The notes under the pieces: model-generated | Told to the model about the DNA's origin: nothing | Seen by the model: only the letters and a program-made list of their open reading frames with translations | The model's database searches: none | Source: an uncultured bacterium | Lineage (GTDB): Bacteria; Fidelibacterota; UBA2242 | Reading direction: 5' to 3' | NCBI GenBank assembly: GCA_964588795.1 | Contig: CAZPQN010000009.1 | Coordinates: forward strand, 294-64,293 | Length of the DNA stretch: 64,000 bases | Shown here: positions 15,054-63,502 of the stretch, piece after piece | How positions within the stretch are numbered: position 1 is the stretch's first letter | How the letters are laid out: the number at the start of each line of letters is the position of its first letter | Translations under genes and position numbers: made by a program

Positions 15054-18044
15054 TCAAACGTTATTAGCGGACAGGAGGCGTTCCTCTTGTACAAGAAGCG
15101 TTTCGATCAGAGTGCTGTTGCTCTGGAGGGTATTCTGCAAAATCCTGCACAGGTGTTTCCCATCGGTTATCGGTTGTTCCAGAGCTTTAGTCAGCGGTTT
15201 GACGATTTGCGAGAGGTGCTCGATCTGCAACTGGTCGGTATTGGAAACCATGAGCCGGTACAGATCGCGGGCATGCTTCAGCAGGTGGTAGCCTTCCGTC
15301 AGCTGTCGCAGGTTTGCCTTTTGCTCCGGCAGAAGCCGGCAGATATTTGCGATCAGTTCGCCAGAGATAGGAGCGCTAATCGCGAGGCGGGCTTTCAAAA
15401 TAAATAGGCAATTTTCATAGTCGCGCAAACCGCCGGGGCTCTCTTTCAGGTCCAAGACATCCGGCGCAAAGGTCGCCTGACGACGCAGGCGGATGTCCCT
15501 GATCAGGGCGGCGATGAATTGCTCCCGCCGGGCAAAAATATAGGGTTCGACAATTTCGCGCAGGAAGCTTTCCTGAAAGTGGAGACTGCACACCACCGGG
15601 CGAGCACCGAGCAGTTGCGACTGGTCAATGTACAGGTTTTCATCGGGAGCGGCAAACAGATTGCGCAGAGCGGTGAAGGTTGTAACGTAATACCGGAAGC
15701 GATCGGCAAACCGGTACTGCGGTATTATCGAGCGGCGGATGATGCGCTCGTTCATTTTTTGAATAACCCGATTGCTGAAGGCATGCATGCTTTTATCATC
15801 GCTGTTCAGTAAAATGATCAGGTCGTAATCGTCATCAAAAGCCTGACCGCGGGCATGTCCGCCGGCAACAAACAACGCGAGCAGGTCACGGGTCGCGGCG
15901 GTGAAATTCATGGCGCGGGCGACTTCCTCGCGGCAGAGTTCGAACAGCACCTGCAGGTAGTTGTCGGAGAAAGTCGTGAACTCGCGGCTGACCTTGGCAA
16001 AGGGGGCGCCGTTGATCAGACTGATGCCGTGGCGCACATATTCGAAATCGTAATAGTCGCCGAGGCGTTCCGTTTTCTCTTCCAGGGAATCGAAATTATC
16101 AATGTTATGAAAAAGTCCTTCGGCCAGCTGACTGAGTTTCAGTTGATTGCTCAGGGAGGTCAAGTAATCCGCATAGGTATTGAAGACCCGCTGGACGAAA
16201 CGTTTGAAATAATAACTGCTGTCGCGGTACAGGCGGCAGAGCAGAATCGTGGTATTCTTGAGGATCTCAATTTCCGGTTTCCAGGCGGGTTGTTCGAATA
16301 TGGAAATGATGTTTTCCAGTAATTCCACCGATAGCAGTGCTAAAAAATTATTCAGGGTTTGCGGCGCGAATCGCAGAATCTGGCTGATGCGCGTAACCGT
16401 TTCGAGCGTGCTCTCAAGCCCTTGGACGAATTCCCGGATGAATCCCCGGTAAAAATCGGTCTCCGTGATCTGCGGGCGACGGTGAGCGAGAATCGTGAAC
16501 AGGGTGATCAATGAATATGGTGAACCGACACCCCAGCGGACGAAGGTTTTAATCAGGGCGGTCTGTTTGTCAGACGGCAGGCGGTTGAAGTCCTCGACAA
16601 AGCGCCGCAGAAGCACCTGGTTGGGATTGTTCAGGCTGTTCAGCAGATCATCCCAGAATCGCACTCCCTGGAAAAACCGACTGGTCCTGATAAAATCCAT
16701 GGGTACGTTGAGTGCCGTAACCGGTTGCGCTTCGCGGGTATTAAAATGCGTGATGGGATGAAAAACAGAAATCGCCGCCAGATGCTCGGTGCTATCCAGC
16801 AATAGTGTTTCGATTCCCTGGCGCGCCAGCTGATGATGATCGTAATAATTGGTCAGCATCTGGGTGACGGCATCGGCATAACTCTTATCAGCGTAGCCCA
16901 AAGCCTGCGCCACCGGTCGGAGATTCGCCCGTACTCCGGGATTATCCAAATGAACTTCCTCTTCCTGGACGACCATCATCTGGTACAGAAAACGGAACGA
17001 CTCCAAAAAGGTCAGGGCTTTGAATATCTGATGATAACTTTCTAAGCTGGCGCCATTGCTCTGGAGTAAAACGTCCAGCACCTCCAGCGAAGTGTTGCCC
17101 GCGAGCCCTTTCCAGGTTTTGAGCGCAAACAAGATCGCTTTCAGCATCCGCAGTCCGTCGCGCTTGGGATTCAGGATATTTTCCAGCGGCTCCTTGTACA
17201 TTAGATCGCGTATCTCACCCAATAGTCCGCGTAAAAAGCCCTCATGATAACGGTTGTCCTGGCCGTGGCGATAATAATAGCGGCTAAGAATTTCGTTCCG
17301 GAAATCAGCGAACAGGTTGACGTCGCCGAGAATCGGAACGGCGTTGACCATTTCGCTCAAGATGACGAAATCCCCGATCTCATCGTCCAGCAGGGCATGA
17401 TAATCCGCCACGGAAGCCGAATAACCGCTGGTGCCGACATGCTCAGAAAGATGGAAATGCAGGGCGCAGGCGTACTTGAGCATCTCGGTATTCAGTGCGC
17501 CGAATGCAGTCGTCAGCATCATACGCTGCGCCTCGCCGGTGTCTATGATGCCGAGGTCAATATCGTCCTGATCCACCCGCGTGCCGACCCCGCATACGAC
17601 GAATCCAGGGCGGGTTTCGCCGGACAGAAACAGGTTCAGCAGGGTCTGCATATAAGCGGCCGTGAGCCGGCGAAAATCGTTGCCGGTGCGCATCAGGAAG
17701 GTCCGCAAGCCCTGATAGCGGTCCAAGCCGGTGCTCATTTTCATCTGCAGGACATCGAGGGCTTTGATATCCAGCAGTAAAAACTGCAGACCGTAGTAGC
17801 AACCTAATAGTTCCTGACGCAGTCCCGCTTCGGGAATTATTTCGACAATCACCTGCATTTCCCGGCGCGGTTGGGGCGCCAACCGCAATAGATGCACCTG
17901 ATCCACCAGCCCGCGTTCATCAAGCAGATTAATCAGGTCATCAAAACGCTGACGGATATTGAAGATGTATTTGCTGAAATGGTTGCCTAACTCCGCCGCT
18001 CTGGCGAGCAGGTCATTCAGCGAGTAGTGAATGGCGGATTTCAC
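15054..18044 (-). CDS. glnE: GlnE-like bifunctional glutamine synthetase adenylyltransferase / adenylyl-removing enzyme (two nucleotidyltransferase domains)
   Basis: 996-aa protein with two pol-beta-type NTase motifs about 550 aa apart (GFVVCGVGTRVDQDDIDLGIIDTG and ALFVAGGHARGQAFDDDYDLIILLN). Each is followed by a helical region; a GG.RD.E-like motif (SPGGLRDYENCLFIL) follows the second. Size and architecture match GlnE. Confidence 0.55.
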   Translation of the reverse strand: MKSAIHYSLNDLLARAAELGNHFSKYIFNIRQRFDDLINLLDERGLVDQVHLLRLAPQPRREMQVIVEIIPEAGLRQELLGCYYGLQFLLLDIKALDVLQMKMSTGLDRYQGLRTFLMRTGNDFRRLTAAYMQTLLNLFLSGETRPGFVVCGVGTRVDQDDIDLGIIDTGEAQRMMLTTAFGALNTEMLKYACALHFHLSEHVGTSGYSASVADYHALLDDEIGDFVILSEMVNAVPILGDVNLFADFRNEILSRYYYRHGQDNRYHEGFLRGLLGEIRDLMYKEPLENILNPKRDGLRMLKAILFALKTWKGLAGNTSLEVLDVLLQSNGASLESYHQIFKALTFLESFRFLYQMMVVQEEEVHLDNPGVRANLRPVAQALGYADKSYADAVTQMLTNYYDHHQLARQGIETLLLDSTEHLAAISVFHPITHFNTREAQPVTALNVPMDFIRTSRFFQGVRFWDDLLNSLNNPNQVLLRRFVEDFNRLPSDKQTALIKTFVRWGVGSPYSLITLFTILAHRRPQITETDFYRGFIREFVQGLESTLETVTRISQILRFAPQTLNNFLALLSVELLENIISIFEQPAWKPEIEILKNTTILLCRLYRDSSYYFKRFVQRVFNTYADYLTSLSNQLKLSQLAEGLFHNIDNFDSLEEKTERLGDYYDFEYVRHGISLINGAPFAKVSREFTTFSDNYLQVLFELCREEVARAMNFTAATRDLLALFVAGGHARGQAFDDDYDLIILLNSDDKSMHAFSNRVIQKMNERIIRRSIIPQYRFADRFRYYVTTFTALRNLFAAPDENLYIDQSQLLGARPVVCSLHFQESFLREIVEPYIFARREQFIAALIRDIRLRRQATFAPDVLDLKESPGGLRDYENCLFILKARLAISAPISGELIANICRLLPEQKANLRQLTEGYHLLKHARDLYRLMVSNTDQLQIEHLSQIVKPLTKALEQPITDGKHLCRILQNTLQSNSTLIETLLVQEERLLSANNV

Positions 18045-18063: not shown

Positions 18064-18624
18064 TCAGACCGGATGGGACTGCAACCAGTCCGTCGCCATG
18101 TCTACTCCGAGCTGAAAAGCATGGAGATTCAGCTCTTCGGTACCTTTGGGGACGCGCGCCCGAATAGCCGATTTGATGGCACCCTCGGAAACTATCCCAA
18201 CCAGTTTGAAGATGGCCCCCAGGGCAACGATGTTGGCGACCATGGCTTTTCCGATTTTGTCGGTCGCCTGCTGAATGATCGGCAGGCTCACCACGCGGAA
18301 ATCACCTTCCGGAATCCGGGTCACCATCTGGGCATCAACGATCAGGATGCCGCCGGGTTTCAAATCGCCGATATATTTCTGGCAGGCTTCCTGAGTCAGA
18401 GCCAGCATGATATCAATTTCCTCGGCTTTAGGATAGTCAATTTCACCATCGGAGATGATGACTTCCGAGCGACTCGCTCCGCCGCGCGCTTCCGGCCCGT
18501 AGGATTGACTCTGAGTGGCATTCAGATCGTCATAAATTGCGGCGGCTTCGGCTAAGACTTTTCCGACCAGGATCAAGCCTTGACCACCGGCGCCGCTCAA
18601 CCTGATTTCATAACGGAATGGCAT
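18064..18624 (-). CDS. 2-oxoacid:ferredoxin oxidoreductase, gamma subunit
   Basis: MPFRYEIRLSGAGGQGLILVGKVLAEAA...YGPEARGGASRSEVIISD is the POR/KOR gamma-subunit signature. Confidence 0.85.
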   Translation of the reverse strand: MPFRYEIRLSGAGGQGLILVGKVLAEAAAIYDDLNATQSQSYGPEARGGASRSEVIISDGEIDYPKAEEIDIMLALTQEACQKYIGDLKPGGILIVDAQMVTRIPEGDFRVVSLPIIQQATDKIGKAMVANIVALGAIFKLVGIVSEGAIKSAIRARVPKGTEELNLHAFQLGVDMATDWLQSHPV

Positions 18625-18641
18625 AATTGCTCTCCTACCTT

Positions 18642-19457
18642 TTAGGCTTTTTGCGGTTGGGCAAAATTTATAATTTGCTGGTAGTTGGTCTGATAATCCG
18701 CCTGTTCGCGGTCAACCAGAACTCCGACGATAATTTTGTCGGTCAGTTCTTCGGGAGTCATTTTGGCGGCTTTTTCGAGACTCACGGTATGGTCTTTCTG
18801 GAAAAGGAGCATTTCCACCGGACCGCCGGCCTTGTTCATCCGTCCGTAGGCGGTAGGACACGGGGAAAGCACCTCCACCACCGAGAAGCCGCGCTTGGTC
18901 AGCGCCTGCTCGATGAATTTATCGAGTCGCGCGGTGTGATAGATCGTCGAACGCGCCACGTAGCTGGCTCCGGCCGCGGCCGCTAAACGAGCGATGTCGA
19001 AGGGTGCGTCCGGGTTACCGTAAGGGGCCGTGGTAGCTTTCTTACCCGTCGGCGTAGTCGGCGAAACCTGTCCCCCGGTCATTCCATAAATGTTATTATT
19101 GTAGATAATGGTCGTGATGTCAATGTTGCGCCGGGCGGCGTGAATGAAATGGTTGCCACCGATAGCGACGGCGTCGCCGTCTCCGGTGACCACAATGACA
19201 TGCAAGCGGGGTTTGGCGATTTTCAGACCGGTCGCAAAGGCCAGGGCTCGCCCATGCGTCGTGTGCAGGGTGTTGAAATCCACGTAACCGGGGGTGCGGC
19301 TGGAGCAACCGATTCCGGAGACGACGGCAATGTCGTCTTTCTGCCAGCCCAATTTGGCAATACAGCGCAATAATGATTTCAGCACCATTCCATGCCCGCA
19401 ACCGGCACACCAGATATGCGGCATCTTGCTCTGACGCAGATAGTGTAAATAATCCAT
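18642..19457 (-). CDS. 2-oxoacid:ferredoxin oxidoreductase, beta subunit (TPP-binding)
   Basis: HIWCAGCGHG..., GIGCSSR, TPP motif VVTGDGDAVAIGGNHFIHAARRNIDITTIIYNNNIYGMTGGQ. Start set at the internal ATG (MDYLHYL) so the gene does not overlap the alpha subunit. Confidence 0.85.
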   Translation of the reverse strand: MDYLHYLRQSKMPHIWCAGCGHGMVLKSLLRCIAKLGWQKDDIAVVSGIGCSSRTPGYVDFNTLHTTHGRALAFATGLKIAKPRLHVIVVTGDGDAVAIGGNHFIHAARRNIDITTIIYNNNIYGMTGGQVSPTTPTGKKATTAPYGNPDAPFDIARLAAAAGASYVARSTIYHTARLDKFIEQALTKRGFSVVEVLSPCPTAYGRMNKAGGPVEMLLFQKDHTVSLEKAAKMTPEELTDKIIVGVLVDREQADYQTNYQQIINFAQPQKA

Positions 19458-51761: not shown

Positions 51762-51938
51762 TCAGTCGGCGGGGAGTTGCCCACAATGCTGATCGCAGTG
51801 CGTTCCGCAGGAACAACCTGCTGGCGGCGATGAGTGGCTTTCACCCTTGTAACGGACTAATTTCAGCACGACCATCAGCAAGCCTATACAGACGCTTACC
51901 GCCAACAGCGTCGTTCCGAAAAGCGCCGCTAACTGCAT
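51762..51938 (-). CDS. 58-aa Cys-rich single-TM mini-protein (NqrM-like / FeoB-associated Cys-rich membrane protein-like); below the ORF-track cutoff
   Basis: The ATG overlaps the CBS-gene stop (TAATG). Product MQLAALFGTTLLAVSVCIGLLMVVLKLVRYKGESHSSPPAGCSCGTHCDQHCGQLPAD has one TM helix followed by CxCxxxCxxxC. It is the last gene of the nqr transcription unit. Confidence 0.5.
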   Translation of the reverse strand: MQLAALFGTTLLAVSVCIGLLMVVLKLVRYKGESHSSPPAGCSCGTHCDQHCGQLPAD

Positions 51939-52393
51939 TATCTCCGCTTCCTGCCCCAGCGCCAGTTCTCGTAATACTCCCAGCTGACGCTTTCAAGTTC
52001 CCGGGTACGTTCCATCAGACAAGCGCGGAAAACATCACCGATGGAAAGCAGACCGATGATCTGACCTTCCCTGATCACAAACAGATGCCGGATAAAAAGG
52101 CCCAACATCATATCGGGCAGTTTATAAATCGGTTCATCGTAATTGACACTTTTTATATCCCGGCTCATATAATCGCCGATCAGCGCGTGCTGGACGTCAA
52201 AGTCGGCTTTATTAATGGAGTTCAGGAGGTCGCGCTCGGTCCAGATACCGACATACTGTTCACCTTCCTGGACCGCGATGGCGCCAATCTTGTTGGCGAC
52301 CATGATTTCTATGGCGGCCCTGATGGTTGTTTGCGGCGTGACGCTGATAATCGAACGGTCTTTTTCCAACACTAAATCGATGGCTCGTTTCAT
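51938..52393 (-). CDS. CBS-domain pair protein
   Basis: Two CBS-like repeats (ISVTPQTTIRAAIEIMVANKIGAIAVQEGEQYVGIWTERDLL and SRDIKSVNYDEPIYKLPDMMLGLFIRHLFVIREGQIIGLLSIGDV). 151 aa. 22 nt downstream of nqrF. Confidence 0.75.
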   Translation of the reverse strand: MKRAIDLVLEKDRSIISVTPQTTIRAAIEIMVANKIGAIAVQEGEQYVGIWTERDLLNSINKADFDVQHALIGDYMSRDIKSVNYDEPIYKLPDMMLGLFIRHLFVIREGQIIGLLSIGDVFRACLMERTRELESVSWEYYENWRWGRKRR

Positions 52394-52415
52394 GGCTTAC
52401 GCTTCCTCATAAGAA

Positions 52416-53648
52416 TTAGCCGAAATTATCATAAAGGATATTTTCGGATTCCACTCCTAAATCTTCCAACATGTGGATCACGGCGCTGTTCATCAGCGGC
52501 GGCCCACAGATGTAATACTCGCAGTCTTCCGGTGCCGGATGGTTCAGCAGATAATTATTCAGGACGACGTTATGGATGAAACCGCAATGGCCTTGCCAGT
52601 TATCTTCCGGCAACGGAGCGGAGAGGGCGACATGCCAGTGGAAATTCGGAAATTCCCGCTGTAATTGGTCGAAGTCGTCCTGATAAAACACTTCTTTCAG
52701 GCTACGCGCTCCATACCAGAAAGAAATGCGCCGGTCGGTGCGCAGTCTTTTCAACTGGTCGAAAATGTGTGAGCGCATCGGAGCCATGCCGGCCCCGCCA
52801 CCGATGAAGATCATTTCGCGGTCGGTCTGCCGGGCGAAAAATTCCCCGTATGGACCGGAAATCGTGACCCTGTCACCCGACTGAAGACTGAAAAGATAGG
52901 AAGACATTTTGCCCGGCGGCACATTCGGATGATCGGGCGGCGGGGAGGCGATCCGGATATTCAGCATGATGATTCCTTTTTCTTCCGGATAATTCGCCAT
53001 CGAATAGGCGCGCACCACCTCCTCGTCCACTTTTGACACGTAACGCCACAGGTCATAGCGCTCCCAGTCGCTTCGGTACTCGTCTTCAATCACAAAATCC
53101 TTATAGGCCACGCGGTGCGGGCCGACTTCGATCTGAATATAGCCGCCGGCCCGGAAATCCACGCTTTCACCGGCTGGTAATTCCAATACCAGTTCTTTGA
53201 TAAAAGTGGCGACGTTGCGGTTGGAGCGCACGGTGCAAACCCATTTGCGGATGGCAAAAACCTCGGGAGGAATCGCCAGTTGCAGGTCGCCCTTGACTGC
53301 CAGCTGGCAGGCTAACCGATAACCTTCCCGGGCTTGCCGGCGATTGATATGCGCGGTTTCGGTGGGGAGCAGACTTCCGCCTCCAGCAACCACCCTGACC
53401 CGGCACATGCCGCATGTGCCGCCACCGCCGCACGCGGAAGCGAGGTAGATCTGCCGCCCGGCCAACGTGTTAAGCAGTTTCTCGCCCAGTGGCGTCTCGA
53501 AAGTATATTGCGGATCGTTGTTGATACTGATCTGGGCCTGACCGGTCGGGATTAACTTCGATTTCGCCCAGAGAATCAGCAGTACCAAGCTGAGCACCAC
53601 GAACGTAAACATGCCGACCGCCAGTAAAATCAAACCAGGTGCGCTCAT
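52416..53648 (-). CDS. nqrF: Na+-translocating NADH:quinone oxidoreductase subunit F (2Fe-2S ferredoxin + FAD/NADH domains)
   Basis: N-terminal TM anchor, plant-type 2Fe-2S cluster ([17 protein letters not shown] ... CQ), FAD/NAD reductase motifs (RAYSMANYP..., [15 protein letters not shown]). Confidence 0.9.
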
Positions 53649-53661
53649 GTATTTATCCCGG

Positions 53662-54273
53662 TCATAACTGAATTCCCGAAAACAGCATAAAGGCGATGGC
53701 CATCAGTCCGGCCGTAATGAAAGTGATGCCCAGTCCTCGCAAGCCCGGTGGTACATTGCTGTAGCGCAAACGCTCGCGGATGCCGGCCAGGGCGACAATC
53801 GCCAGGGCCCAGCCCAAGCCGGAACCCAACCCGAAAACCACACTTTCAGGGAAATTGTAACTGCGTTCAACCATAAACAGCGAACCGGCGAGAATGACGC
53901 AGTTCACCGTTATCAGGGGCAGAAAAATGCCCAAGGCATGATAGAGTTTGGGAAAGTAGCGATCCAAGGTCATTTCCAAAATCTGCACAATCGCCGCGAT
54001 TACTCCGATATAGGTGATCAATCCCAAAAAGGTCAGGTCTACCTGACCCAGACCGAGCCAGCCGAGCGCTCCCTCGGATAACAGGTTGCGATATATCAGG
54101 TTGTTGATCGGAACCGTGATAGTCTGGACGATGATCACGGCAATGCCTAATCCAAAAGCCGTTTCCAGGCGCTTGGAAACCGCCAAAAAAGTGCACATCC
54201 CCAAGAAAAATGCCAGGGCCATATTTTCAATGAACACAGCGCGGATGAACAGGCTCAGGTAATGTTCCAGCAT
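53662..54273 (-). CDS. nqrE: Na+-translocating NADH:quinone oxidoreductase subunit E
   Basis: [43 protein letters not shown]. Six-TM NqrE/RnfA-type protein, in the E position between D and F. Confidence 0.85.
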
Positions 54274-54276
54274 TTT

Positions 54277-54894
54277 TTACTCCTTGAGCGTCTCCGGTTT
54301 CCAGGTGCGCAAAGCCCAGATCAGGAGCCCGATCAGGAAAAAGGCGCTCGCGGGCAATACCAATAGACCATTGGGTACATACCAGCCGCCTTCAGTATAG
54401 GGAGTCAACAGGGTCACGCCCAACAATTTCCCGGCGCCCAACAGTTCGCGGAAAAACGCCACCACCAACAAAACCAAACTGTACCCCAGCCCATTACCCA
54501 AGCCGTCCAGCAAACTGGCCCCGGGCGGATTCTTCAAACCATAGGCTTCCGTGCGTCCTAACAGAATACAATTGGTGATGATCAGACCGACGTAAACGGA
54601 TAACTGCTTGCTGATATTGAAGGCAAATGCCTTGATGAACTGATCGGCGATGATGACCAGCGAGGCAATGATCGTCATTTCGACGATAATCCGGATACTG
54701 CCGGGAACCTGCTTCCGGATAAGGCTGACCGCGAAGTTGGCAAATCCAGTCACCAACGTCACGGCCAGCGCCATGACCAGCGCGGTTTCCAACTTCGAGG
54801 TCACGGCCAGGGCGGAGCAAATACCTAAAATTTGTACCACGACCGGATTATCTTTGATGATCGGATTCAGAAAAACGGTGCGCATTTTACTCAT
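54277..54894 (-). CDS. nqrD: Na+-translocating NADH:quinone oxidoreductase subunit D
   Basis: [38 protein letters not shown] is an NqrD/RnfE-type N-terminus. The start ATG overlaps the nqrC stop. Confidence 0.85.
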
Positions 54895-55684
54895 GGTGCG
54901 CCAGAGCCTCCCGCAAGGTTCGAATGACCTGACCATAGCCATTTTCACCCAACCAGAACCGCACCAGGTTATTGACCCCGCGCGTGGTCAGCGTGGCCCC
55001 CGACAATCCATCCACCTGAAATTGAGCCGCCGGAGTTCCAGGAATGACGTGTCCCTTGATGACCTCGATGAGTACCTGTCCTTCGGCATCGAGGGCGCGT
55101 TTGTCAATCCAGCTCTGCCGCCAGCGTGGATTTTCGATTTCGCCGCCCAATCCGGGCGTCTCGCCATGCTCATAAAACACCAAACCCTTGACGGTCTGCA
55201 GGTCCCGGTCGAAAGCGATGAAGCCGTACAGCGTCGACCATAAGCCCTTGCCGTAAACCGGCAGAATGACCCTGTTCGTTTGTCCGGCTTCGACGACGCG
55301 GTAAATCAGCATAAAATTGGGACGCCGCAGAATGTTGGCCGGGTCGTTTTGCGGGGGCAAGGCCGTGCTGTACAGGGGATGTTTGCTGATAACTTTCAGA
55401 TCGAATTTTTGCGGCGATAATAGAGGGGCATCGGCTGGAGTATTGACCACCGCGCCGGTCGTCAGGTCAACTAAATCGGTCCGGATTTTTTCATTATAAA
55501 TTTTCTTGACCGTCGCATCGTTAGTGTATAAATCGGCCGCGATCAAGATGTTTTTCAGACGATCCAGCTGGCGGTTTCTCTCCTGGGTCTGCCTTAACCC
55601 GACCACGGCGGAGGAAACCAATACCGAACATACCAAGCAGACTCCCAGCGCAACGAGCAAAGTCTTGCGGGTTTCAGAGGCCAT
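54887..55684 (-). CDS. nqrC: Na+-translocating NADH:quinone oxidoreductase subunit C (FMN-binding)
   Basis: Single N-terminal TM. Covalent-FMN site [12 protein letters not shown] (S/T-G-A-T). 265 aa. Confidence 0.85.
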
Positions 55685-56876
55685 GGTGCCTCCTTCTTCT
55701 GCGGCTGTGGATATTAATTACCACCCTGTCAATCACCGGGGCAAACATGTTGCCAAACAGGATCGCCAACATCATGCCCTCCGGAAAGGCCGGATTGATC
55801 ACCCTGACCAGTACTACCAACATGCCTATCAGCAAACCATACAGCCATTGGCCGGGAATCGTCACGGCGGCCGTGACCGGATCGGTAGCCATGAAAACCA
55901 TGCCAAAGGCAAAACCACCCAAGACCAAATGCCAGTAGGGAGGCACCTGAAACATCGGATTGGTCGCACTGCCGATTAAATTGAACAGCCCCGAGAGGGC
56001 TACCATCCCGGTCAGCGTGCTTAACATGATCCGCCAGGAACCGACCCCGGTAACGATCAGGATCAGCGCGCCGATTAAGCAAGCCAATGTGGAAGTTTCC
56101 CCCATTGAACCGGGAATGAAGCCCAAAAAGGCTTCCCGCCAGGTCACAGTTAATTGCATCAGTGGATCGGCCAGCTCTGCTAAAGGAGTGGCGCGACTGA
56201 CGCCATCAACGGCAACCCAAACCTTATCACCGGAAATTTGGGCCGGATAGGCAAAAAACAGAAATGCCCGCGCGACCAAAGCCGGGTTGAAAATATTATA
56301 ACCAACGCCCCCGAATACTTCTTTGCCAATTACCACTCCGAAACTGATTCCGAGGGCAACCTGCCAGTAGGGAATGGTCGGCGGTAGTATCAGAGGGAAA
56401 AGCAAACTGGTCACGAAAAAGCCTTCCGCCACTTCGTGCCGCCGCACCGAGGCAAAAAGCACTTCCCAGAAGCCGCCTGCCGCCAAGGTCACAATATAAA
56501 CCGGGAAAAAATAGAATGCGCCGAGTAAAATATTCGACCAGAAATTGGTCGGATCGGGAGCTACACCGAGGCCCGCCACCAGCCGTGCCTGCCAGGACAA
56601 TTCTGCATCTGCGCCAAGTTTGATCAACAGGCTATTTGCCTGCCAGCCGGTGTTATAGAGCGCCATGAAAACCGCCGGAAGCAGGGCGACGAAAACGACA
56701 ATCATCAGCCGCTTCAAATCCATGAAATCGCGGACATGCACCGTTCCGCGGGTGGTCTTGCCGGGCGTGTAGAGAAAAGTATCAACGGCCTCCCATAAAA
56801 AGAATAGGCGGTGCAGTTTCCCGCCTTTTTCAAAGTGCCGCGCCTGCTTATCCAAAAAGGTGCGCACCGCTTTCAC
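55674..56876 (-). CDS. nqrB: Na+-translocating NADH:quinone oxidoreductase subunit B
   Basis: N-terminus MKAVRTFLDKQARHFEKGGKLHRLFFLWEAVDTFLY. Polytopic membrane protein of 400 aa with a flavinylation-type motif region (VDGVSRATPLA). Confidence 0.85.
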   Translation of the reverse strand: MKAVRTFLDKQARHFEKGGKLHRLFFLWEAVDTFLYTPGKTTRGTVHVRDFMDLKRLMIVVFVALLPAVFMALYNTGWQANSLLIKLGADAELSWQARLVAGLGVAPDPTNFWSNILLGAFYFFPVYIVTLAAGGFWEVLFASVRRHEVAEGFFVTSLLFPLILPPTIPYWQVALGISFGVVIGKEVFGGVGYNIFNPALVARAFLFFAYPAQISGDKVWVAVDGVSRATPLAELADPLMQLTVTWREAFLGFIPGSMGETSTLACLIGALILIVTGVGSWRIMLSTLTGMVALSGLFNLIGSATNPMFQVPPYWHLVLGGFAFGMVFMATDPVTAAVTIPGQWLYGLLIGMLVVLVRVINPAFPEGMMLAILFGNMFAPVIDRVVINIHSRRRRRHHGL

Positions 56877-58246
56877 AGATTTTCCTTCGCAATGGCAGCC
56901 AACACCTGACGCAGGTTTTGCCCGTGATCAATTTTTGCCGGACAAACATAGGTGCAAAGCGCCAGGTCTTCTTCTAATAGTTCAAGAGCGCCCAATTTCT
57001 CCGCCTCCTCCAAATCACTCATCGCCAGAGCCCTAAGTAAAAAGGTCGGCAGTAAATCCAAAGGCATAACCTTTTCGTAACTACCGACTGGTATTATCGC
57101 TCGCGCACTTCCATGCGTGGAAGTCGTCAATGCCAACCGGCGCCGTGACAGGAAGCGCGACAACACGACGCGCTTGACGGAATATTCCTGGCGACCCAAG
57201 GTGAGCCAGCCGAACAACCGACGCTGTTGGTCTTCTGCTAAAACTGTGATCTGCCGCTGGAAGCGACCGAGGAAACGTAGTTCATCCGCCGCGGCATGAC
57301 CGTTCAGCACCGAACCGGCGATGACGCGGTTCAAACCCGGACGTAATTCATCAGTCATCAAATCCGTCACCTGCGCACCTAACCGGGTCCGCACTAAGCG
57401 TGGCCTGATCAATCCCGGGCCCGACAGGGCGATTGTGCGTTCGGTCAGCAGTCGTCCCGTGTTAAAAAGATATCCGATGGCGACGACCTCTTCGGCATTG
57501 ATTTGCCAGACTGCTTGCTGCCGACTTACCGGATCTAAAAAATGGATATGGGTGCCCGGCAAACCTGCCGGATGCGGGCCACTGAATTCAGCTACTAGCA
57601 GGCGGCTGTTCTCTATACGCGGTAAATCCACCCCGGGAGCCTGACAGACAAAAACCCGTCCCTCGGTAAGCTGCAGCAGAATCCGCAAACCGTAGGCGAA
57701 CTCGCGTTCCCAGCCTTGCAGTACTACGGCTAAATCAGGCGCGAGGGGACTACTGTCCAGTGCGGTGACGAAAATGGAATGCGGGACAATTTCCGGATCA
57801 GCGACGTAACCAAAGGGACGTTGCCGCAGAGCCACCCATTGCCCGGACTTGAGCAGTAGATCCACAATTGCCGCGCGCGTCAACTCCTGCTCGGGCAAAG
57901 TTTCAAAAACTGCTTCCTCCTGACCTTCCAGCTTAATGACCAGGGACAGAAAAGCCCGCTTCGCTCCGCGATTGAGTTCCACGATGCGCCCACTCCCAGG
58001 AGCCGTGAATCTGATCTGCGGCTTTTTTTTATCCACAAAAAGCGTTTGACCGGTTTGCACATGATCACCCAGACCGACAACGAATTCCGGTTTCAGGCCG
58101 GGGAAATCAATCCCCAAAACTGCGCTCTGGGTTACGGATCGGGTTTCATATACTTTCTGCTCCGGCTCTCCCGTGAGTGGCAGGTTTAAACCCTTGCGGA
58201 TTTTGAAGCGCAACGGATGACTAATAGGCGAGGGCTGGATTTTCAT
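56873..58246 (-). CDS. nqrA: Na+-translocating NADH:quinone oxidoreductase subunit A
   Basis: MKIQ...FKIRKGLNLPLTGEPEQKV is an NqrA-type N-terminus. About 457 aa, first gene of nqrABCDEF. Start set at the internal ATG; the track ORF opens 26 codons upstream. Confidence 0.85.
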   Translation of the reverse strand: MKIQPSPISHPLRFKIRKGLNLPLTGEPEQKVYETRSVTQSAVLGIDFPGLKPEFVVGLGDHVQTGQTLFVDKKKPQIRFTAPGSGRIVELNRGAKRAFLSLVIKLEGQEEAVFETLPEQELTRAAIVDLLLKSGQWVALRQRPFGYVADPEIVPHSIFVTALDSSPLAPDLAVVLQGWEREFAYGLRILLQLTEGRVFVCQAPGVDLPRIENSRLLVAEFSGPHPAGLPGTHIHFLDPVSRQQAVWQINAEEVVAIGYLFNTGRLLTERTIALSGPGLIRPRLVRTRLGAQVTDLMTDELRPGLNRVIAGSVLNGHAAADELRFLGRFQRQITVLAEDQQRRLFGWLTLGRQEYSVKRVVLSRFLSRRRLALTTSTHGSARAIIPVGSYEKVMPLDLLPTFLLRALAMSDLEEAEKLGALELLEEDLALCTYVCPAKIDHGQNLRQVLAAIAKENL

Positions 58247-58277
58247 TAATGCGTTGAAAAATGGCCGCAACAAACGA

Positions 58278-58778
58278 TTAAGTGAAAATAATCTGAGCTC
58301 CGGCGGATAATTCGTAAAACTCACCGACGGTAAGCACCTTCTCCACCTGCGGAATGAAATCCGCCATGGTCAGGTGGAACATATCCACGGTGGCTTTGCA
58401 GGCAAAGATTCTGGCGCCGGCGTCGTGTACCATTTCCAACATCTCCGGAATGGGCGGGATGTCCAATTTCTCCATTTCCTTCTTCATCATCCAGGTCGCA
58501 AAGGCCGACATCCCCGGAATCAAGCCGACCAACGTCGGCAAGGGCAGGCCTTTGGCATCCGGAACGCGCATCGCCGGGTTGCCAACCGTGGCGATTTTAA
58601 TACTGTTGTTATACTTCTTCAAAATGCCATACAAACCGAAAAACGTGAAAAACAAGTTGACGTCGATCCCCTCCATGCGGGCGCCGTTGGCCATGATGAG
58701 CCCGGGATAGATGCCATCCAGGGAACCTTTAGAGACAATGATCGAGACCTTTTTGATCTTTTCAGGATTTTCTGCCAT
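58278..58778 (-). CDS. DsrE/DsrF-like sulfur-relay family protein
   Basis: 166 aa with a YchN/DsrE-like pattern: KVSIIVSKGSLDGIYPGLIMANGARMEGIDVNLFFTFFG and conserved Cys in ARIFACKATVDMF. Confidence 0.6.
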   Translation of the reverse strand: MAENPEKIKKVSIIVSKGSLDGIYPGLIMANGARMEGIDVNLFFTFFGLYGILKKYNNSIKIATVGNPAMRVPDAKGLPLPTLVGLIPGMSAFATWMMKKEMEKLDIPPIPEMLEMVHDAGARIFACKATVDMFHLTMADFIPQVEKVLTVGEFYELSAGAQIIFT

Positions 58779-58843
58779 TGTGCACTCCTAAATTTTGCAT
58801 TATCAATTATTCCAAAGATTTTTACGTTTAATCAAGAGCGCCA

Positions 58844-59158
58844 TCAGACGCAACTGGCGGGTTTCGGCAAGCCGGCGATCTTGGCGGCTTTCTTCAGCGG
58901 CCCACCGGGGAACAGGACATAAAATTCCTTCGTGGGCACGCAGGCGACGTTAATGCGCCGAATGGTGGGCAAGGCGCCTTTTTCGCGATAATCCTGCTGC
59001 AGAAATTCGATGACTTTCCAATGCGCGGGAGTCAGTTCGGGAATCCCTTCCTCTTTTGCGAGTTCCGCGGCGATGGTTTTATTCCATTGGGCGGGATTGG
59101 TCAGATAACCTTCCTCGGTGATGTCCAGCGTTACGCCGGCGATGGTTTTGGTTGCCAT
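58844..59158 (-). CDS. TusE/DsrC/DsvC-family sulfur-relay protein (single C-terminal Cys, TusE-like)
   Basis: 104 aa. GYLTNPAQWNKTIAAELAKEEGIPELTPAHWKVIEFLQQDYREKG...VLFPGGPLKKAAKIAGLPKPASCV matches DsrC/TusE end to end, including the penultimate Cys (...GLPKP.SCV). The DsrC CysB (11 residues upstream) is replaced by Ala. Confidence 0.8.
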   Translation of the reverse strand: MATKTIAGVTLDITEEGYLTNPAQWNKTIAAELAKEEGIPELTPAHWKVIEFLQQDYREKGALPTIRRINVACVPTKEFYVLFPGGPLKKAAKIAGLPKPASCV

Positions 59159-59174
59159 AAATATGCTCCTATTT

Positions 59175-60410
59175 TCAGGTTAATTTTTTACCCAGTTTAC
59201 TCATGCGGGTGGGGATGCCGGGCATTGGCCAGCCGCGCAGTAAAATATTCCAGTAAATGAATTTAAAGGCCAGTTTGCCCCAGTGATTGAGCCGCGTCTC
59301 CTTCAAAAGCGCCATCGGCCCGATAAACGGAAATGGGAAACGCCCGGCGACCGGTTCAACATCGTAATTGAAATCAATCAGAAAAGCCTTGCCAAAACCC
59401 GATTCGATGAAGCAGTTGGCGTGTCCATCGAAGCCTTCTTCCAATGGTTTACCGGCAATATAATTCAGGATGTTGTCGGTCAGGATTTCCGACTGAAAAT
59501 GCGCCACACTGCCGGCTTTGGAGCTGGGCAGGTCGCTGGCATCACCGATCACAAAAATGTTTGCGTACTTTTTCGATTGCAAGGTGTGCTTGTAGGTCGG
59601 GACATAATTCAGTTCGTCGCCCATTCCGCTGCGGGCAATGGCCTCATCGCCCATGTTGGTCGGAATAGAAACCAACAGGTCATAGGCGACCTCCTGTCCA
59701 CCGTAGGAAATGAGCTTTTTGGACGTGCCATCCACACGCTCGGTGTAGAAGTCGGGGACGATCTTGATCTGTTTTTCGGTCAATAGATGACCGAGAACGG
59801 CTGATGATTGCGGTTTGGTAAATGCGCCGCTCGCGGGCGTGACATAGGTAATCTCGACTTTGTCGCGCAGGTTTTTCCCGTGAAAAAAGGCATCCGCCAG
59901 AAAAACAAACTCCAGCGGCGCGACGGGACATTTAATCGGCATCTCGGCGACATGCAACACCAATTTGCCACCCGTCCAGTTTTGTAATTTCTGGGCTAAG
60001 GCGGTTGCGCCTTCGATCGTATAGAAATCGAAAATGTCTTCCCGCCAGCCGCCGTCCAACAAACCGGCTATTTGCTCGGGGGCAATCTTGACCCCCGTGG
60101 CAATGATCAGGAGGTGATAATCGAGGGTCTGGCCGTTTTTCAAAAGCACCTGGCTTTTTGCGGGCTGAATCGTCTCGACGGCCGCCTGAACAAATTCCAC
60201 CGACTCGGGTAAAAACGCCGCTTTTTCACGAATGACGTCTTCCGGCTGATAGATACCAAACGGAATGAACAGGAACCCGGGCTGGTAATAGTGCGTGTGA
60301 TGCTCGTCGACAACGGTGATCTTCCACTGCTTGCGGTCCAGCTTGCGTGCCAGGTGGTTTGCCATCATCGTGCCGCCCGTACCGGCTCCTAAAATTAGAA
60401 TCTTGCGCAT
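59175..60410 (-). CDS. sqr: Sulfide:quinone oxidoreductase-like flavoprotein (FAD-dependent pyridine nucleotide-disulfide oxidoreductase family)
   Basis: Rossmann ILILGAGTGGTMMANHL. SQR-type cysteine motifs IKCPVAPLEF (Cys~160 CPxAP) and GHANCFIE (C-terminal redox Cys). 411 aa. Adjacent to the TusE and DsrE homologues. Confidence 0.65.
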   Translation of the reverse strand: MRKILILGAGTGGTMMANHLARKLDRKQWKITVVDEHHTHYYQPGFLFIPFGIYQPEDVIREKAAFLPESVEFVQAAVETIQPAKSQVLLKNGQTLDYHLLIIATGVKIAPEQIAGLLDGGWREDIFDFYTIEGATALAQKLQNWTGGKLVLHVAEMPIKCPVAPLEFVFLADAFFHGKNLRDKVEITYVTPASGAFTKPQSSAVLGHLLTEKQIKIVPDFYTERVDGTSKKLISYGGQEVAYDLLVSIPTNMGDEAIARSGMGDELNYVPTYKHTLQSKKYANIFVIGDASDLPSSKAGSVAHFQSEILTDNILNYIAGKPLEEGFDGHANCFIESGFGKAFLIDFNYDVEPVAGRFPFPFIGPMALLKETRLNHWGKLAFKFIYWNILLRGWPMPGIPTRMSKLGKKLT

Positions 60411-60511
60411 CGGTTTTCCTCTGGGTTAATAATAATCGAATCCGGTTAAAAAATCAAATACTATGTTTTTAGAGACCGCTTCTGGAAAAGGTTACAAAAT
60501 TTTTATACGAA

Positions 60512-61390
60512 CTACTTTTGGTACTTAGCTTTCCTTCTAGCCGCCGGCAGGTACTGGCTGACGCGCGGATGGTCGGGGGCCAGCTGCAGACACTTTTCCC
60601 AATTGGCGACGACCTCCTTCCATTTTCCCGCCACCCAGCAAACTGAACCAAGGTTATAATAGTAGTCAGCCTCCTGAGGCTTGATCCGGATCGCCTGCTG
60701 GTAATCGCGTACGGCCTCGGGATAATGCCGCAGTTTCTGGTGACAGAAAGCGCGGGCGGCATAATATTCTGCTTGCTCCGGACTCACCCGGAGCATCTGG
60801 TCATAATCCCGAATCGCCGCCGGATAATTGCGACGTTCCTTGTACAGCCGCGCCCGGGCATACAAATATTCGGGTTCAGGACGCAATTCAATCGCGTGCG
60901 AGTAATCGCTCAGCGCATTTGGAAACTGGTGCAGGCGTTCGTAACAAGTGCCCCGGTCGGCATAGGCTTGCGCGTTATTCGGACTCATTTCTATCAGGTG
61001 GTGGTAGTCGTTTAACGCCTCGTCCATTCGTCCGGTCTGTTCCAGGCAAATGGCGTGTTTAAGGTATGCTTCCTCCACCGCCGGATTAAGAGTAATGACC
61101 TGCGCATAATCAGTAAGCGCCGAATCATAATGCTGGAGATCAAAGTAAACGTTGGCGCGTCGCAGGTAGGCGTTGGCGAAGTCCGGTTTGAGGGCGATGG
61201 CCTGGTTGAAATATTCCAATTGCTGTTGCGGATCGTTGGTAGCTGTGCCACGACTGAACCAGGCCGCAGCGGACTGGATCGCTGATTCGGTTTGTGTTTC
61301 CCTGTCTCCGACGGGTAAAATGGCACAGCCGCTCAACCCGATCCCCAGGGCAATCATTGTTCCGGTCAAATGGATTCTAAGGTTTGGCAT
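60512..61390 (-). CDS. TPR-repeat lipoprotein
   Basis: Lipobox MIALGIGLSGC. Eight or more 34-aa TPR units of the form A..Y......Y..AL.DY..AI.L.P. Confidence 0.7.
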   Translation of the reverse strand: MPNLRIHLTGTMIALGIGLSGCAILPVGDRETQTESAIQSAAAWFSRGTATNDPQQQLEYFNQAIALKPDFANAYLRRANVYFDLQHYDSALTDYAQVITLNPAVEEAYLKHAICLEQTGRMDEALNDYHHLIEMSPNNAQAYADRGTCYERLHQFPNALSDYSHAIELRPEPEYLYARARLYKERRNYPAAIRDYDQMLRVSPEQAEYYAARAFCHQKLRHYPEAVRDYQQAIRIKPQEADYYYNLGSVCWVAGKWKEVVANWEKCLQLAPDHPRVSQYLPAARRKAKYQK

Positions 61391-61408: not shown

Positions 61409-62917
61409 TCAGGTGGGAAACTGCATGTTCTTGGCAAACAACTCCTGAAATTCCGGGTCGCGGGCTATAGGAAAGTGTTCAACCAGGGGCAGGACTTTCC
61501 GATACTCCGCCCCAGTCAACAGGCTGAGTTTAGCGCCGCGCAGGGCTGTATTGCCCGCCTGTTCGATTTGATCGGGGTGGAAATTTAGCAAGCCGATGCG
61601 GGTGGCACTGGGCAGGCTGACGTAATTCCCAAACGCCCCGGCTAAATAGACTTTTTCGATGTCCGCCGCACGCAGGTGCATCTGCCGAAGCAGGATGTCC
61701 ATGCCCGCCGCAATGGCGCCTTTGGCCAACTGCAGTTCGCGTATATCGGCCTGAGACAAGACGACCGGGGCCGCGAGGCTGATCTGACGATGCGGCGTCA
61801 GAATTTTGCCCGATTTATCAATCCACTGCTGGTCAAGTCCGGTCGCGATGGCATCTACCAATCCGCTGCCGCAGATACCGCGCGGCGTCCCGCCGCCGAT
61901 GACCTCGCTGATTAGTTGACTGTTCCGGACGTAGACTTTCCAAATCGCCCCGGTAGTAGCCCGCATCCCCATACCGATCTGAGCGCCTTCAAACGCTGGG
62001 CCTGCCGCAGTCGAAGCGCACATGATATGCTCGCGATTGCCAATTACAATCTCACCGTTGGTGCCGAGGTCAATCAACCCGACAGGTTGTTTGCTGTGTT
62101 GCATACCGACAGCCATAATTCCGGCCAGGATGTCGCTACCAACGAATCCTCCCAGGCAGGGCAAAAAGCGAATTTCGGGATTGCCGGCAAGTTGCCATTC
62201 GATCTCAGCCGCGAACCAGTGGATTTCCGCGCCCCGGTGCGTCTCAAACGGATAGCGCGCCAAGGCATCGATTGCCTGCCCGCCAAACAGGTGGTGCATG
62301 GCCGTATTTCCGACGAGGTGAATAGCTTTAAGAGGCAGAGCGGAACAGCCACAGTTCGCGATTAGATTCGAGAGCAGCTGCCCGATTTGCCTGCGGATTA
62401 ATTCACGCAGGGTCTGCGCTCCGGAAGCGTGCAGCGCGAAGTTGATCCTACTCATGATATCCGCTCCGTGACGCGCCTGCGGATTGAGCGCGGCCTCAGT
62501 CGCCAGGACAGCTCCGGATCTTAAATCCAGAATTTGGGCGACCAGCGTGGTGGTTCCGACATCCACCGCCACTCCCAGCTCGGCCTTTTTATCAAGGTCT
62601 AGGACGTTGCCGTCTGCTAAAATGCTGGTGTTCCATTGTTCCAGTTCAATCACCATGGGTTCGTCGGCGGTGCACTGACAGGCGAGACGCCAGCCAGTGG
62701 AAAGTTCCGCGGCCGATAGTTGGCGACGTTGTACCTCATTCACCGGCAAATCGCCGTCGAGCAAACGGATGCGGCATTTACGACAAACACCGCGTCCGCC
62801 GCAGGGAAATTCCACCCCCTGTTCAAAAAGAGCGTCATGCAACGGCGTCCCGCGCGGCACTTCGATCGTCCGCCCGAGAGGTTCAAACCTGATTGTTACT
62901 TTTTGTGCGTCGGTCAT
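61409..62917 (-). CDS. 2Fe-2S ferredoxin-domain + ASKHA-fold ATPase protein (RACo-like reductive activator of corrinoid proteins / DUF4445 family)
   Basis: N-terminal plant-type ferredoxin domain (FPCGGRGVCRKCRIRLL ... LACQC) followed by an actin/Hsp70-like ATPase-fold region (VDVGTTTLVAQILD..., LIDLGTNGEIVIG). Divergently arranged with cobO. Confidence 0.6.
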   Translation of the reverse strand: MTDAQKVTIRFEPLGRTIEVPRGTPLHDALFEQGVEFPCGGRGVCRKCRIRLLDGDLPVNEVQRRQLSAAELSTGWRLACQCTADEPMVIELEQWNTSILADGNVLDLDKKAELGVAVDVGTTTLVAQILDLRSGAVLATEAALNPQARHGADIMSRINFALHASGAQTLRELIRRQIGQLLSNLIANCGCSALPLKAIHLVGNTAMHHLFGGQAIDALARYPFETHRGAEIHWFAAEIEWQLAGNPEIRFLPCLGGFVGSDILAGIMAVGMQHSKQPVGLIDLGTNGEIVIGNREHIMCASTAAGPAFEGAQIGMGMRATTGAIWKVYVRNSQLISEVIGGGTPRGICGSGLVDAIATGLDQQWIDKSGKILTPHRQISLAAPVVLSQADIRELQLAKGAIAAGMDILLRQMHLRAADIEKVYLAGAFGNYVSLPSATRIGLLNFHPDQIEQAGNTALRGAKLSLLTGAEYRKVLPLVEHFPIARDPEFQELFAKNMQFPT

Positions 62918-62986
62918 TTTGTATGCTGTTCGATGCGGGTAAGTAATTAAATTTCCAGCAGATTTCAAATAAAAAGGATAACGGGC

Positions 62987-63502
62987 ATGAAAGGATACCT
63001 GCAGGTTTATACGGGCGATGGTAAAGGGAAAACGACAGCGGCTCTGGGCCTGGCGGTGCGCGCCGCCGGTGCCGGATTAAAGGTTTTCATTGGTCAATTC
63101 GTGAAAGGCACTCCCTCAGCGGAAACCACAGCCCTGCAAAAACTGAACGACCAGATTACCCTCCGGCGGTACGGTCGGTCAGCTTTTATCATAAATCAAC
63201 CGACGGCGGCAGATATCAGCGCCGCACAAGCGGGGTTAACAGAAGTACGACAAATCATCCAATCGGGGAACTATGACCTCGTGATTCTGGACGAAGCCAA
63301 TATCGCGGTTCATTACGCACTCTTCAGCATTGACGAGTTAATTGAGACTATCAGCAATCGCCCCGCGCACGTCGAAATCGTCGTTACCGGCCGCTATGCC
63401 CATTCACGTCTCATTGCCACCGCCGATTTGGTTACCGAAATGATCGCCGTCAAGCATTATTTCCAGCAGGGTGTCATCGCTCGTCCGGGAATCGAAAAAT
63501 AA
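62987..63502 (+). CDS. cobO: Cob(I)yrinic acid a,c-diamide / cob(I)alamin adenosyltransferase (CobA/CobO/BtuR family)
   Basis: MKGYLQVYTGDGKGKTTAALGLAVRAAGAGLKVFIGQFVKG (P-loop), ...LVILDEANIAVHYAL... Typical 171-aa size. Confidence 0.85.
   Translation: MKGYLQVYTGDGKGKTTAALGLAVRAAGAGLKVFIGQFVKGTPSAETTALQKLNDQITLRRYGRSAFIINQPTAADISAAQAGLTEVRQIIQSGNYDLVILDEANIAVHYALFSIDELIETISNRPAHVEIVVTGRYAHSRLIATADLVTEMIAVKHYFQQGVIARPGIEK

Follow-up and report, generated by a model that had tools for sequence, protein, structure and literature searches.

Gene content and packing of the locus

The window analysed here is a 64,000-nucleotide (nt) stretch of DNA from an uncultured marine bacterium of the Marinimicrobia (Neomarinimicrobiota, Fidelibacterota), taken from contig CAZPQN010000009.1 of assembly GCA_964588795.1 (positions 294 to 64,293). 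The assignment agrees with the organism names of proteins clustering at 90% identity with the DsrE2-like protein and with UBA2242 as the closest species representative. Between positions 51762 and 60410, its minus strand carries eleven tightly packed open reading frames (ORFs) in the order sqr-tusE-dsrE2-nqrABCDEF-CBS-mini-ORF. These genes encode a sulfide:quinone reductase (SQR), two putative sulfur carriers, the six subunits of the Na+-translocating NADH:quinone oxidoreductase (Na+-NQR), a CBS-pair protein, and a small protein of 58 amino acids (aa); an ORF check of the window confirmed the coordinates of all of them. The explanation that we favour, and consider probable though well short of settled, is a single respiratory operon in which a self-contained sulfide-oxidation cassette (sqr-tusE-dsrE2) was joined to the 5' end of an nqrABCDEF-CBS-small-membrane-protein operon.

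Distances between the genes are short throughout. Within the cassette, gaps of 16 nt (sqr/tusE) and 65 nt (tusE/dsrE2) are found, and each of the three genes is preceded by a GAGGA or AGGAG Shine-Dalgarno motif. The dsrE2 and nqrA genes lie 31 nt apart if nqrA starts at ATG 58246 and 64 nt apart if it starts at TTG 58213. Further downstream, the genes overlap by 4 nt (nqrA/nqrB), 11 nt (nqrB/nqrC), and 8 nt (nqrC/nqrD) or are separated by 3 nt (nqrD/nqrE), 13 nt (nqrE/nqrF), and 22 nt (nqrF/CBS), while the CBS stop and the mini-ORF start share 1 nt. A terminator scan revealed no convincing terminator at the dsrE2-nqrA junction, where RNA folding was not better than that of shuffled sequences (z +0.5), and no terminator or stable structure above the shuffle background at the 3' end of the operon. 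The initial annotation had described eleven closely spaced minus-strand genes consistent with one transcription unit; coordinates and scan bear this out, no terminator/promoter pair divides dsrE2 from nqrA in the scan, and the gene identities that it proposed all agree with Pfam and NCBIfam matches. Because four independent assemblies (ENA, JGI, Logan) carry the same layout at 100% identity, an assembly artefact is excluded.

The first gene (59175-60410, minus strand) encodes a type III SQR of 411 aa. It matches NF049943 with 640.6 bits against a cut-off of 525, over profile positions 1-406 of 406, and shows an FAD-binding fold (PF07992, 52 bits over residues 3-292) with GAGTGG at residues 8-13. 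The protein contains exactly two cysteines, C161 (IKCPVAP) and C333 (HANCFIESG), both invariant in the alignment of SQR homologues (A1). Human mitochondrial SQOR, a type II SQR (PDB 6oi5, 6mo6, 8dhk) and the closest solved structure, aligns with it over the full length (E 6e-48), and both active-site cysteines of SQOR match C161/C333. The HxxU selenocysteine motif of the NF049943 family appears here as H330-A-N-C333, in which the cysteine is encoded by TGC and no in-frame TGA occurs; judged by its coding sequence, the window SQR is the cysteine-containing form of a 'selenoprotein subtype' family, without selenocysteine. A generic NDH-2, the identity that would have undone the initial reading of this gene, was rejected: the NF049943 score lies well over its cut-off, neither SQR cysteine is missing, and the match to NDH-2 structures is confined to the N-terminal third. 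Sulfide-dependent quinone reduction by this enzyme is a prediction from family membership and active-site residues.

The two carrier-like proteins follow. The 104-aa product of the second gene (58844-59158, minus strand) belongs to the DsrC/TusE family (PF04358, 111 bits). The sole TusE-type NCBIfam cut-off that it passes is that of TIGR03342 (89.5 vs. 53.5), a broad TusE/DsrC/DsvC subfamily, and it does not reach the TusE equivalog NF008562 (67.8 vs. a cut-off of 191). Its penultimate residue, C103, is invariant in 83/83 cassette homologues, and no other cysteine is conserved. In DsrC proper, a CysB stands about 11 residues upstream of the penultimate CysA; here, that position is occupied by Ala, and the protein is thus without the second cysteine that DsrAB chemistry needs. 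The third gene (58278-58778, minus strand) encodes a DsrE2-like protein of 166 aa of the DrsE_2 family (PF13686, 109.5 bits vs. a cut-off of 25), which stays below the DsrE2 equivalog NF047629 (123 bits vs. a cut-off of 210). Its C127 is the single invariant cysteine, kept in 78/78 cassette homologues. No transmembrane helix is predicted in either carrier, the hydropathy maximum of the DsrE2-like protein being 1.32. The same family pairing, a DsrE-type with a DsrC/TusE-type protein and an active cysteine in each, is known from the DsrEFH-DsrC and TusBCD-TusE relays, in which sulfur passes from the DsrE-type cysteine to the C-terminal cysteine of DsrC or TusE. The window differs from these relays in that a single DsrE2-like gene stands in place of a three-subunit complex, a dsrAB or mnmA context is lacking, and the partner is an SQR.

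The six nqr genes, all on the minus strand, are arranged in operon order, and every product lies over an NCBIfam equivalog cut-off. Public gene calls start nqrA (56873-58246; NF003759, 580.7 vs. 505) at ATG 58246, which gives 457 aa; the alternative start at TTG 58213 yields the N-terminus MRFKIRKGLNLPL, closer to the homologue consensus MxRIKLKKGLNLPL (alignment A2), and no Shine-Dalgarno sequence precedes either start. NqrB (55674-56876; NF003756, 581.4 vs. 414) carries DGVSRAT (T230) at its flavinylation site, with Arg at the second motif position, and NqrC (54887-55684; NF003749, 302 vs. 255) carries the flavinylation motif SGAT (T231). In NqrD (54277-54894; NF006777, 321.3 vs. 235), C26 and C109 are kept in 57/57 homologues, and in NqrE (53662-54273; TIGR01940, 334.8 vs. 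247.55), C27 and C125 are kept in 53/53. NqrF (52416-53648; TIGR01941, 672.2 vs. 295) shows the Pfam domains Fer2, FAD_binding_6, and NAD_binding_1, and its 2Fe-2S cysteines C73, C79, C82, and C114 are kept in 48/48 homologues. Na+ pumping by this complex is likewise predicted. Both the subunits and their order are those of the canonical nqrABCDEF(-apbE-nqrM) operons of Vibrio, many Proteobacteria, and Bacteroidota, and the cofactor-binding residues are kept. The window operon departs from them at its two ends, with the sqr cassette in front and, behind, a CBS-pair gene and a PF12669-like small Cys-rich membrane protein instead of apbE and nqrM; canonical NqrM (PF04400) follows nqrF in many of the sampled proteobacterial-type loci, but not in the window.

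Distribution of the cassette and its linkage to nqr

The cassette was surveyed by scanning the SQR-III alignment against one genome per GTDB species, which yielded 80 loci. These span at least 10 phyla, including Bacteroidota, Verrucomicrobiota, Planctomycetota, Firmicutes, Chloroflexota, Calditrichota, Aminicenantes, Desulfobacterota, Cloacimonadota, and Marinimicrobia. The genes sqr, tusE, and dsrE2 occur in that order in 76/80 loci; three of the remaining four run off their contig, and the last is unresolved. The trio is therefore a self-contained, highly conserved, and widespread module. It is common in strict anaerobes (Cloacimonadota, Aminicenantes, Desulfitobacterium, Clostridiaceae, Kiritimatiellales) and equally so in aerobic Flavobacteriia. 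In about 12-15 loci (L025, L042, L046, L048, L054, L059, L061, L062, L071, L077, L078, L080-L082, L087), an extra gene of about 235 aa stands between sqr and tusE and encodes a helical protein with a C-terminal DUF1641 (PF07849, 37.9 bits). After dsrE2, the neighbours vary (regulators, a FadL-type outer-membrane protein, MsrA), and no conserved fourth gene points to a destination for the sulfur. Ahead of the cassette, a MerR-family regulator with a Cys-rich C-terminal tail is found in L081 (9540-9983) and in seven other loci of other phyla, and TetR and Crp/Fnr types also precede it in places, so the cassette has been set under several unrelated regulators.

A counterpart of the trio has been reported in the aerobic verrucomicrobial methanotroph Methylacidiphilum fumariolicum SolV, in which MFUM_v2_0219-0221 (a type III SQR, a putative sulfur carrier, and a DsrE2-like 'peroxiredoxin family' protein) form an operon that is induced 1.7-1.8-fold by H2S, and the SQR was proposed to oxidise sulfide to elemental sulfur and to feed the quinone pool (PMC10205796). 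Likened by its reported genes and not by sequence, that operon holds the same three genes in the same order as the window cassette, although it is not joined to nqr.

Linkage to nqr is far more restricted than the cassette itself: nqr lies near the cassette in only 4/80 SQR-III loci, all of Marinimicrobia or Cloacimonadota types. Within the Fidelibacterota, the arrangement is not peculiar to the window genome, since sqr-tusE-dsrE2-nqrABCDEF-CBS is present in 9/9 Fidelibacterota-type lineages examined (the window, UBA2242 as L005/L008, L009, L088, L089, L090, L175, L176, and L177). The SQRs of these loci are 67-80% identical to that of the window, and the flanks of the block change from locus to locus, with at least five different contexts.

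The linkage recurs in Cloacimonadota in two layouts, each seen in two lineages. In L174 (Ca. Tenebribacter mawsonii), the order is TetR-sqr-tusE-dsrE2-nqrABCDEF-ubiA-polyprenyl synthase, and in L015, the trio is directly followed by nqrA, nqrB, and nqrC up to the contig end. In L172, L173, L091, and L011, nqr is divergent from the cassette and 5 kb apart. According to the gene tables of L172, L173, and L091, nrfH-nrfA-ccsB-ccsA-TetR lies between the two; these islands occupy positions 1-12126 in L172/L173 (nqr through nqrF) and 1-12128 in L091 (through nqrE), with a ubiA prenyltransferase gene nearby. Their gene content suggests that, in a phylum usually called fermentative, nitrite ammonification is fed by sulfide and NADH. 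The nqr genes of Cloacimonadota and of L176 belong to a deeply different lineage, whose NqrA is 31-39% identical to that of the window, compared with about 50% for proteobacterial-type NqrA. Since the cassette meets two nqr lineages, in two layouts, and beside other quinone-linked genes (nrfHA, ubiA, polyprenyl synthase), the comparison argues that the linkage was selected rather than accidental.

The arrangement had been put forward as not described, which holds in part. Literature searches on an sqr-nqr linkage in Marinimicrobia and Cloacimonadota found no description, and it is unmentioned in the main Marinimicrobia reconstruction and in the Ace Lake Cloacimonadota paper; the sqr-tusE-dsrE2 trio itself, on the other hand, is widespread and already reported in Methylacidiphilum. 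The part that is apparently undescribed is thus the conserved fusion or close linkage of the cassette with nqr. All components come from known families, and the operon fusion by itself demonstrates no new chemistry.

Expression, electron flow and alternative readings

A 101-nt AT-rich intergenic region (60411-60511, minus strand) precedes sqr and holds a sigma-70-like match, TTGATT-17-TATTAT, at 60457-60429; this region is the probable operon promoter. It also contains TTGTAAC(C) at 60497-60491 (minus strand), a motif that the window shares unchanged with L088, L089, and L005, at positions -82 to -96 relative to the start of sqr, and that is followed after 16-18 nt by TCTCTAA in three of these four loci. 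The genes upstream of TTGTAAC are unrelated among the four, and the motif is a candidate promoter or operator travelling with the operon. Another origin, in which TTGTAAC was the ancestral nqr promoter behind which the cassette was inserted, was dropped, as the motif occurs in 3/73 cassette-less nqrA upstream regions, which is the chance level. In the window and L089, the dsrE2-nqrA spacer measures only 25-31 nt and leaves no intergenic room for another promoter; therefore, an sqr-proximal promoter probably serves the whole unit.

Under the single-operon reading, this promoter would drive all eleven genes. The SQR, a monotopic flavoprotein, would oxidise H2S at Cys161/Cys333 and pass two electrons via FAD to the membrane quinone. 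Na+-NQR would oxidise NADH, reduce the same quinone pool, and pump Na+. The operon would in this way co-express the two electron inputs of the quinone pool, and each time the Na+-coupled chain is made, sulfide would be both detoxified and drawn on as an additional electron donor. Re-oxidation of the resulting quinol would fall to terminal enzymes whose genes lie elsewhere, and the NrfHA that adjoins in Cloacimonadota is a plausible quinol oxidiser. The suggestion of the initial annotation that both enzymes feed one quinone pool is the best-supported reading of the locus, with function deduced from the gene families.

Human SQOR requires an external sulfane-sulfur acceptor, a part played by the small molecules glutathione or sulfite. 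This need suggests a role for the carriers adjoining the window SQR: by analogy, the sulfane sulfur may be moved as a protein persulfide to Cys127 of the DsrE2-like protein and/or to the flexible C-terminal Cys103 of the TusE/DsrC-like protein. The two enzymes differ, however, in SQR type, share low identity, and no carrier proteins are encoded alongside SQOR. In at least 10 phyla, type III SQR is almost always accompanied by two single-Cys carriers, which suggests that protein persulfides are the physiological acceptor of the sulfur in this SQR class, the least studied of all.

Several observations weigh against the single-operon reading, and some of them favour instead a reading by descent, in which cassette and nqr are independent transcription units that have stood in tandem since an ancestor and were kept together by inheritance and not by co-expression. 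Co-transcription of all eleven genes is something we infer from the sequence, and for any type III SQR, the passing of sulfur to the carriers, the sequence of these transfers, and the final site of the sulfur have the standing of a proposal. Weak sigma-70-like matches lie within dsrE2 and in the tusE-dsrE2 spacer. The dsrE2-nqrA spacer is unconserved and varies from 25 to 171 nt among relatives; at 112-171 nt in L088, L090, and L177, it offers room for an internal nqr promoter. Neither part obligately depends on the other, for the cassette occurs without nqr nearby in about 70 species of many phyla, and no cassette was found at any of 80 other metagenomic nqr loci (0/80; NqrA 47-55% identical to that of the window). 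The closest cassette-less nqr operons (L092, L095) open with nqrA behind a divergently transcribed gene. Moreover, the association is phylogenetically clustered, with perhaps only two to four independent events, and part of its conservation may be inheritance.

Other evidence speaks against inheritance alone. The block persists while both of its flanks change, the shortest spacers admit no promoter outside coding sequence, and the same cassette recurs beside nqr genes as distant as those of Cloacimonadota, in two layouts and with nrfHA, ubiA, and polyprenyl synthase genes. We consider common descent without co-expression the foremost alternative to the single operon, unlikely on present evidence yet deserving real weight.

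The regulators found upstream of sqr bear on a further alternative. Five relatives (L009, L090, L175, L176, L177) have an ArsR-family gene immediately ahead of sqr. The full-length copies, in L090 (9665-9991), L175 (7854-8180), and L177 (2136-2462), encode an ArsR/SmtB-family regulator of 108 aa with three conserved cysteines, C19, C39, and C47 (FCVGD motif), and in these three loci, where the gene is called, it is separated from sqr by 9 nt. It is preceded there by a strong terminator of the preceding gene, a TTGACT promoter-like site, and an AT-rich palindromic stretch; because of this terminator and the TTGACT site, the start of the unit is placed at the ArsR gene, which counts in favour of the single-operon reading. 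In Cloacimonadota loci L091, L172, and L174, a TetR gene stands directly upstream of sqr. The window subgroup has no ArsR-type regulator upstream of sqr, and no regulator gene adjoins the window operon.

These genes could mean that respiration is gated by sulfide or persulfide, with a thiol-based repressor upstream of sqr (ArsR/BigR-like in one Fidelibacterota group, TetR in Cloacimonadota, and a factor acting at TTGTAAC in the window group) making nqr expression sulfide-responsive. The position of the ArsR-family and TetR genes, the conserved cysteines, and the conservation of TTGTAAC in the group without ArsR speak for such a switch. Yet the nearest named NCBIfam family of the ArsR-like protein, BigR, is matched with 54.7 bits, far under the cut-off of 155, and no effector can be assigned from the family; the window operon has no adjoining regulator, and an internal nqr promoter is possible. 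Gating as the explanation of the linkage appears improbable. A broader scenario, which we put forward as speculative and doubtful, combines the switch with the single-operon reading: type III SQR cassettes may have been recruited repeatedly into nqr operons in Marinimicrobia/Fidelibacterota and Cloacimonadota (Fibrobacterota-Chlorobiota-Bacteroidota (FCB) group), placing the Na+-pumping NADH dehydrogenase under a sulfide- or persulfide-responsive control (ArsR/BigR-like, TetR, or TTGTAAC). The outcome would be a dedicated sulfide-tolerant and sulfide-fuelled Na+ respiratory chain, wired in Cloacimonadota via NrfHA to nitrite ammonification.

Electron flow could also run the other way, from NADH through Na+-NQR to quinol, with SQR working backwards and reducing persulfide or polysulfide on the TusE-like and DsrE2-like carriers to H2S. 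An operon that joins an electron-input enzyme to a putative output enzyme would make sense, the cassette is frequent in strict anaerobes, and Marinimicrobia have already been implicated in polysulfide reduction via Psr (PMC5688066). For a monotopic, non-electrogenic enzyme, however, reducing sulfur with quinol is unfavourable, since E0' is about -270 mV for S0/HS- and far higher, about -75 mV, for menaquinone; the cassette is also just as common in aerobic Flavobacteriia. Wherever type III SQRs were assayed, they oxidised sulfide (as cited in PMC10205796), and H2S induces the Methylacidiphilum operon, whose host is an aerobe that oxidises sulfide (PMC10205796). The quinol-oxidising NrfHA adjoining in Cloacimonadota fits the forward, sulfide-oxidising direction as well, and reverse operation is very improbable.

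Least credible of all is the other proposal of the initial annotation, a sulfur relay for NQR maturation in which the Fe-S centres of NqrF and NqrD/E receive their sulfur from the DsrE2-like and TusE-like proteins: adjacency and the Cys-ligated Fe centres of NqrD, NqrE, and NqrF speak for it, but the distribution contradicts it, with the carriers tied to SQR whether nqr is present or not and absent from 80/80 other nqr operons. Cysteine desulfurases are the normal source of Fe-S sulfur, and the place of a maturation factor, behind nqrF and CBS, is taken by another small membrane protein rich in cysteine and comparable with NqrM.

The Marinimicrobia, of which no member has been brought into culture, are a numerous group in oxygen-minimum and sulfidic waters. 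Should their main NADH:quinone oxidoreductase and SQR be expressed together in every case, as the single-operon reading would have it, sulfide oxidation or tolerance would be built into the respiratory chain of the group. Current Marinimicrobia reconstructions stress Psr, Nar, and Nos, and the SQR-NQR link is not part of them.

Downstream genes and genomic flanks

The gene after nqrF (51938-52393, minus strand) encodes a stand-alone CBS-pair protein of 151 aa with two stretches matching PF00571. A CBS-pair gene occupies this position, right after nqrF, in the window, L005, L009, L088-L090, L092, L095, L159, and L175-L177; it accompanies both nqr lineages of the Fidelibacterota, as well as some cassette-less relatives. 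We read it as an accessory or regulatory partner of NQR.

The last gene of the unit is the 58-aa mini-ORF (51762-51938, minus strand), whose product combines one strong transmembrane helix, an RYK patch, and then CxCxxxCxxxC. In the window, it has no NCBIfam match and no Pfam match at E up to 10. Counterparts after the CBS gene are present in L005 (18493-18663), L089 (18398-18550), L090 (18497-18670), and L092 (7743-7904), and together with the window copy, they share one transmembrane helix, a basic R/K-Y/F-K patch, and about four cysteines. Small ORFs have been called at the same position in L175 (16602-16775, 57 aa) and L177 (11006-11170, 54 aa). With 28.1 vs. 27 bits, the L089 copy lies over the cut-off of PF12669 (FeoB-associated Cys-rich membrane protein), the L090 copy reaches 19.5, and in the Cloacimonadota locus L091, a PF12669-like gene likewise follows nqrE. 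The mini-ORF is probably a real gene. An identification as NqrM was rejected, as PF04400 is not matched (canonical NqrM of the sampled loci scores 81 bits) and the likeness lies in architecture and position only; by analogy, an NqrM-like NQR maturation factor or an analogue of it is possible. In L005, the conserved Cys-rich mini-ORF is overlapped by a public call of 91 aa at 18430-18705 on the opposite strand (minus), probably made in error, and in L176, a 65-aa ORF (15703-15900) lies between nqrE and nqrF.

Upstream of the operon lie three genes, at 60512-61390 (minus strand), 61409-62968 (minus strand), and 62987-63502 (plus strand), which between them encode a tetratricopeptide repeat (TPR) protein, a RACo-like corrinoid-activation protein with Fer2 and RACo domains, and a CobA/BtuR adenosyltransferase. 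The UBA2242 flank has the CobA gene in common with the window and is without the RACo and TPR genes. A gene pair for an extracytoplasmic function (ECF) sigma factor and its anti-sigma factor lies about 6-7 kb upstream in both the window contig (L001) and UBA2242 (L005). The ORFs scanned elsewhere in the window include no other sulfur or respiratory genes. The rest of the window encodes PFOR, a 2-oxoacid:ferredoxin oxidoreductase, glycolytic enzymes, outer-membrane proteins, and proteins with type IX secretion system (T9SS) sorting tails; the two ferredoxin-linked oxidoreductases and the T9SS tails fit an anaerobic or facultative organism of the FCB group.

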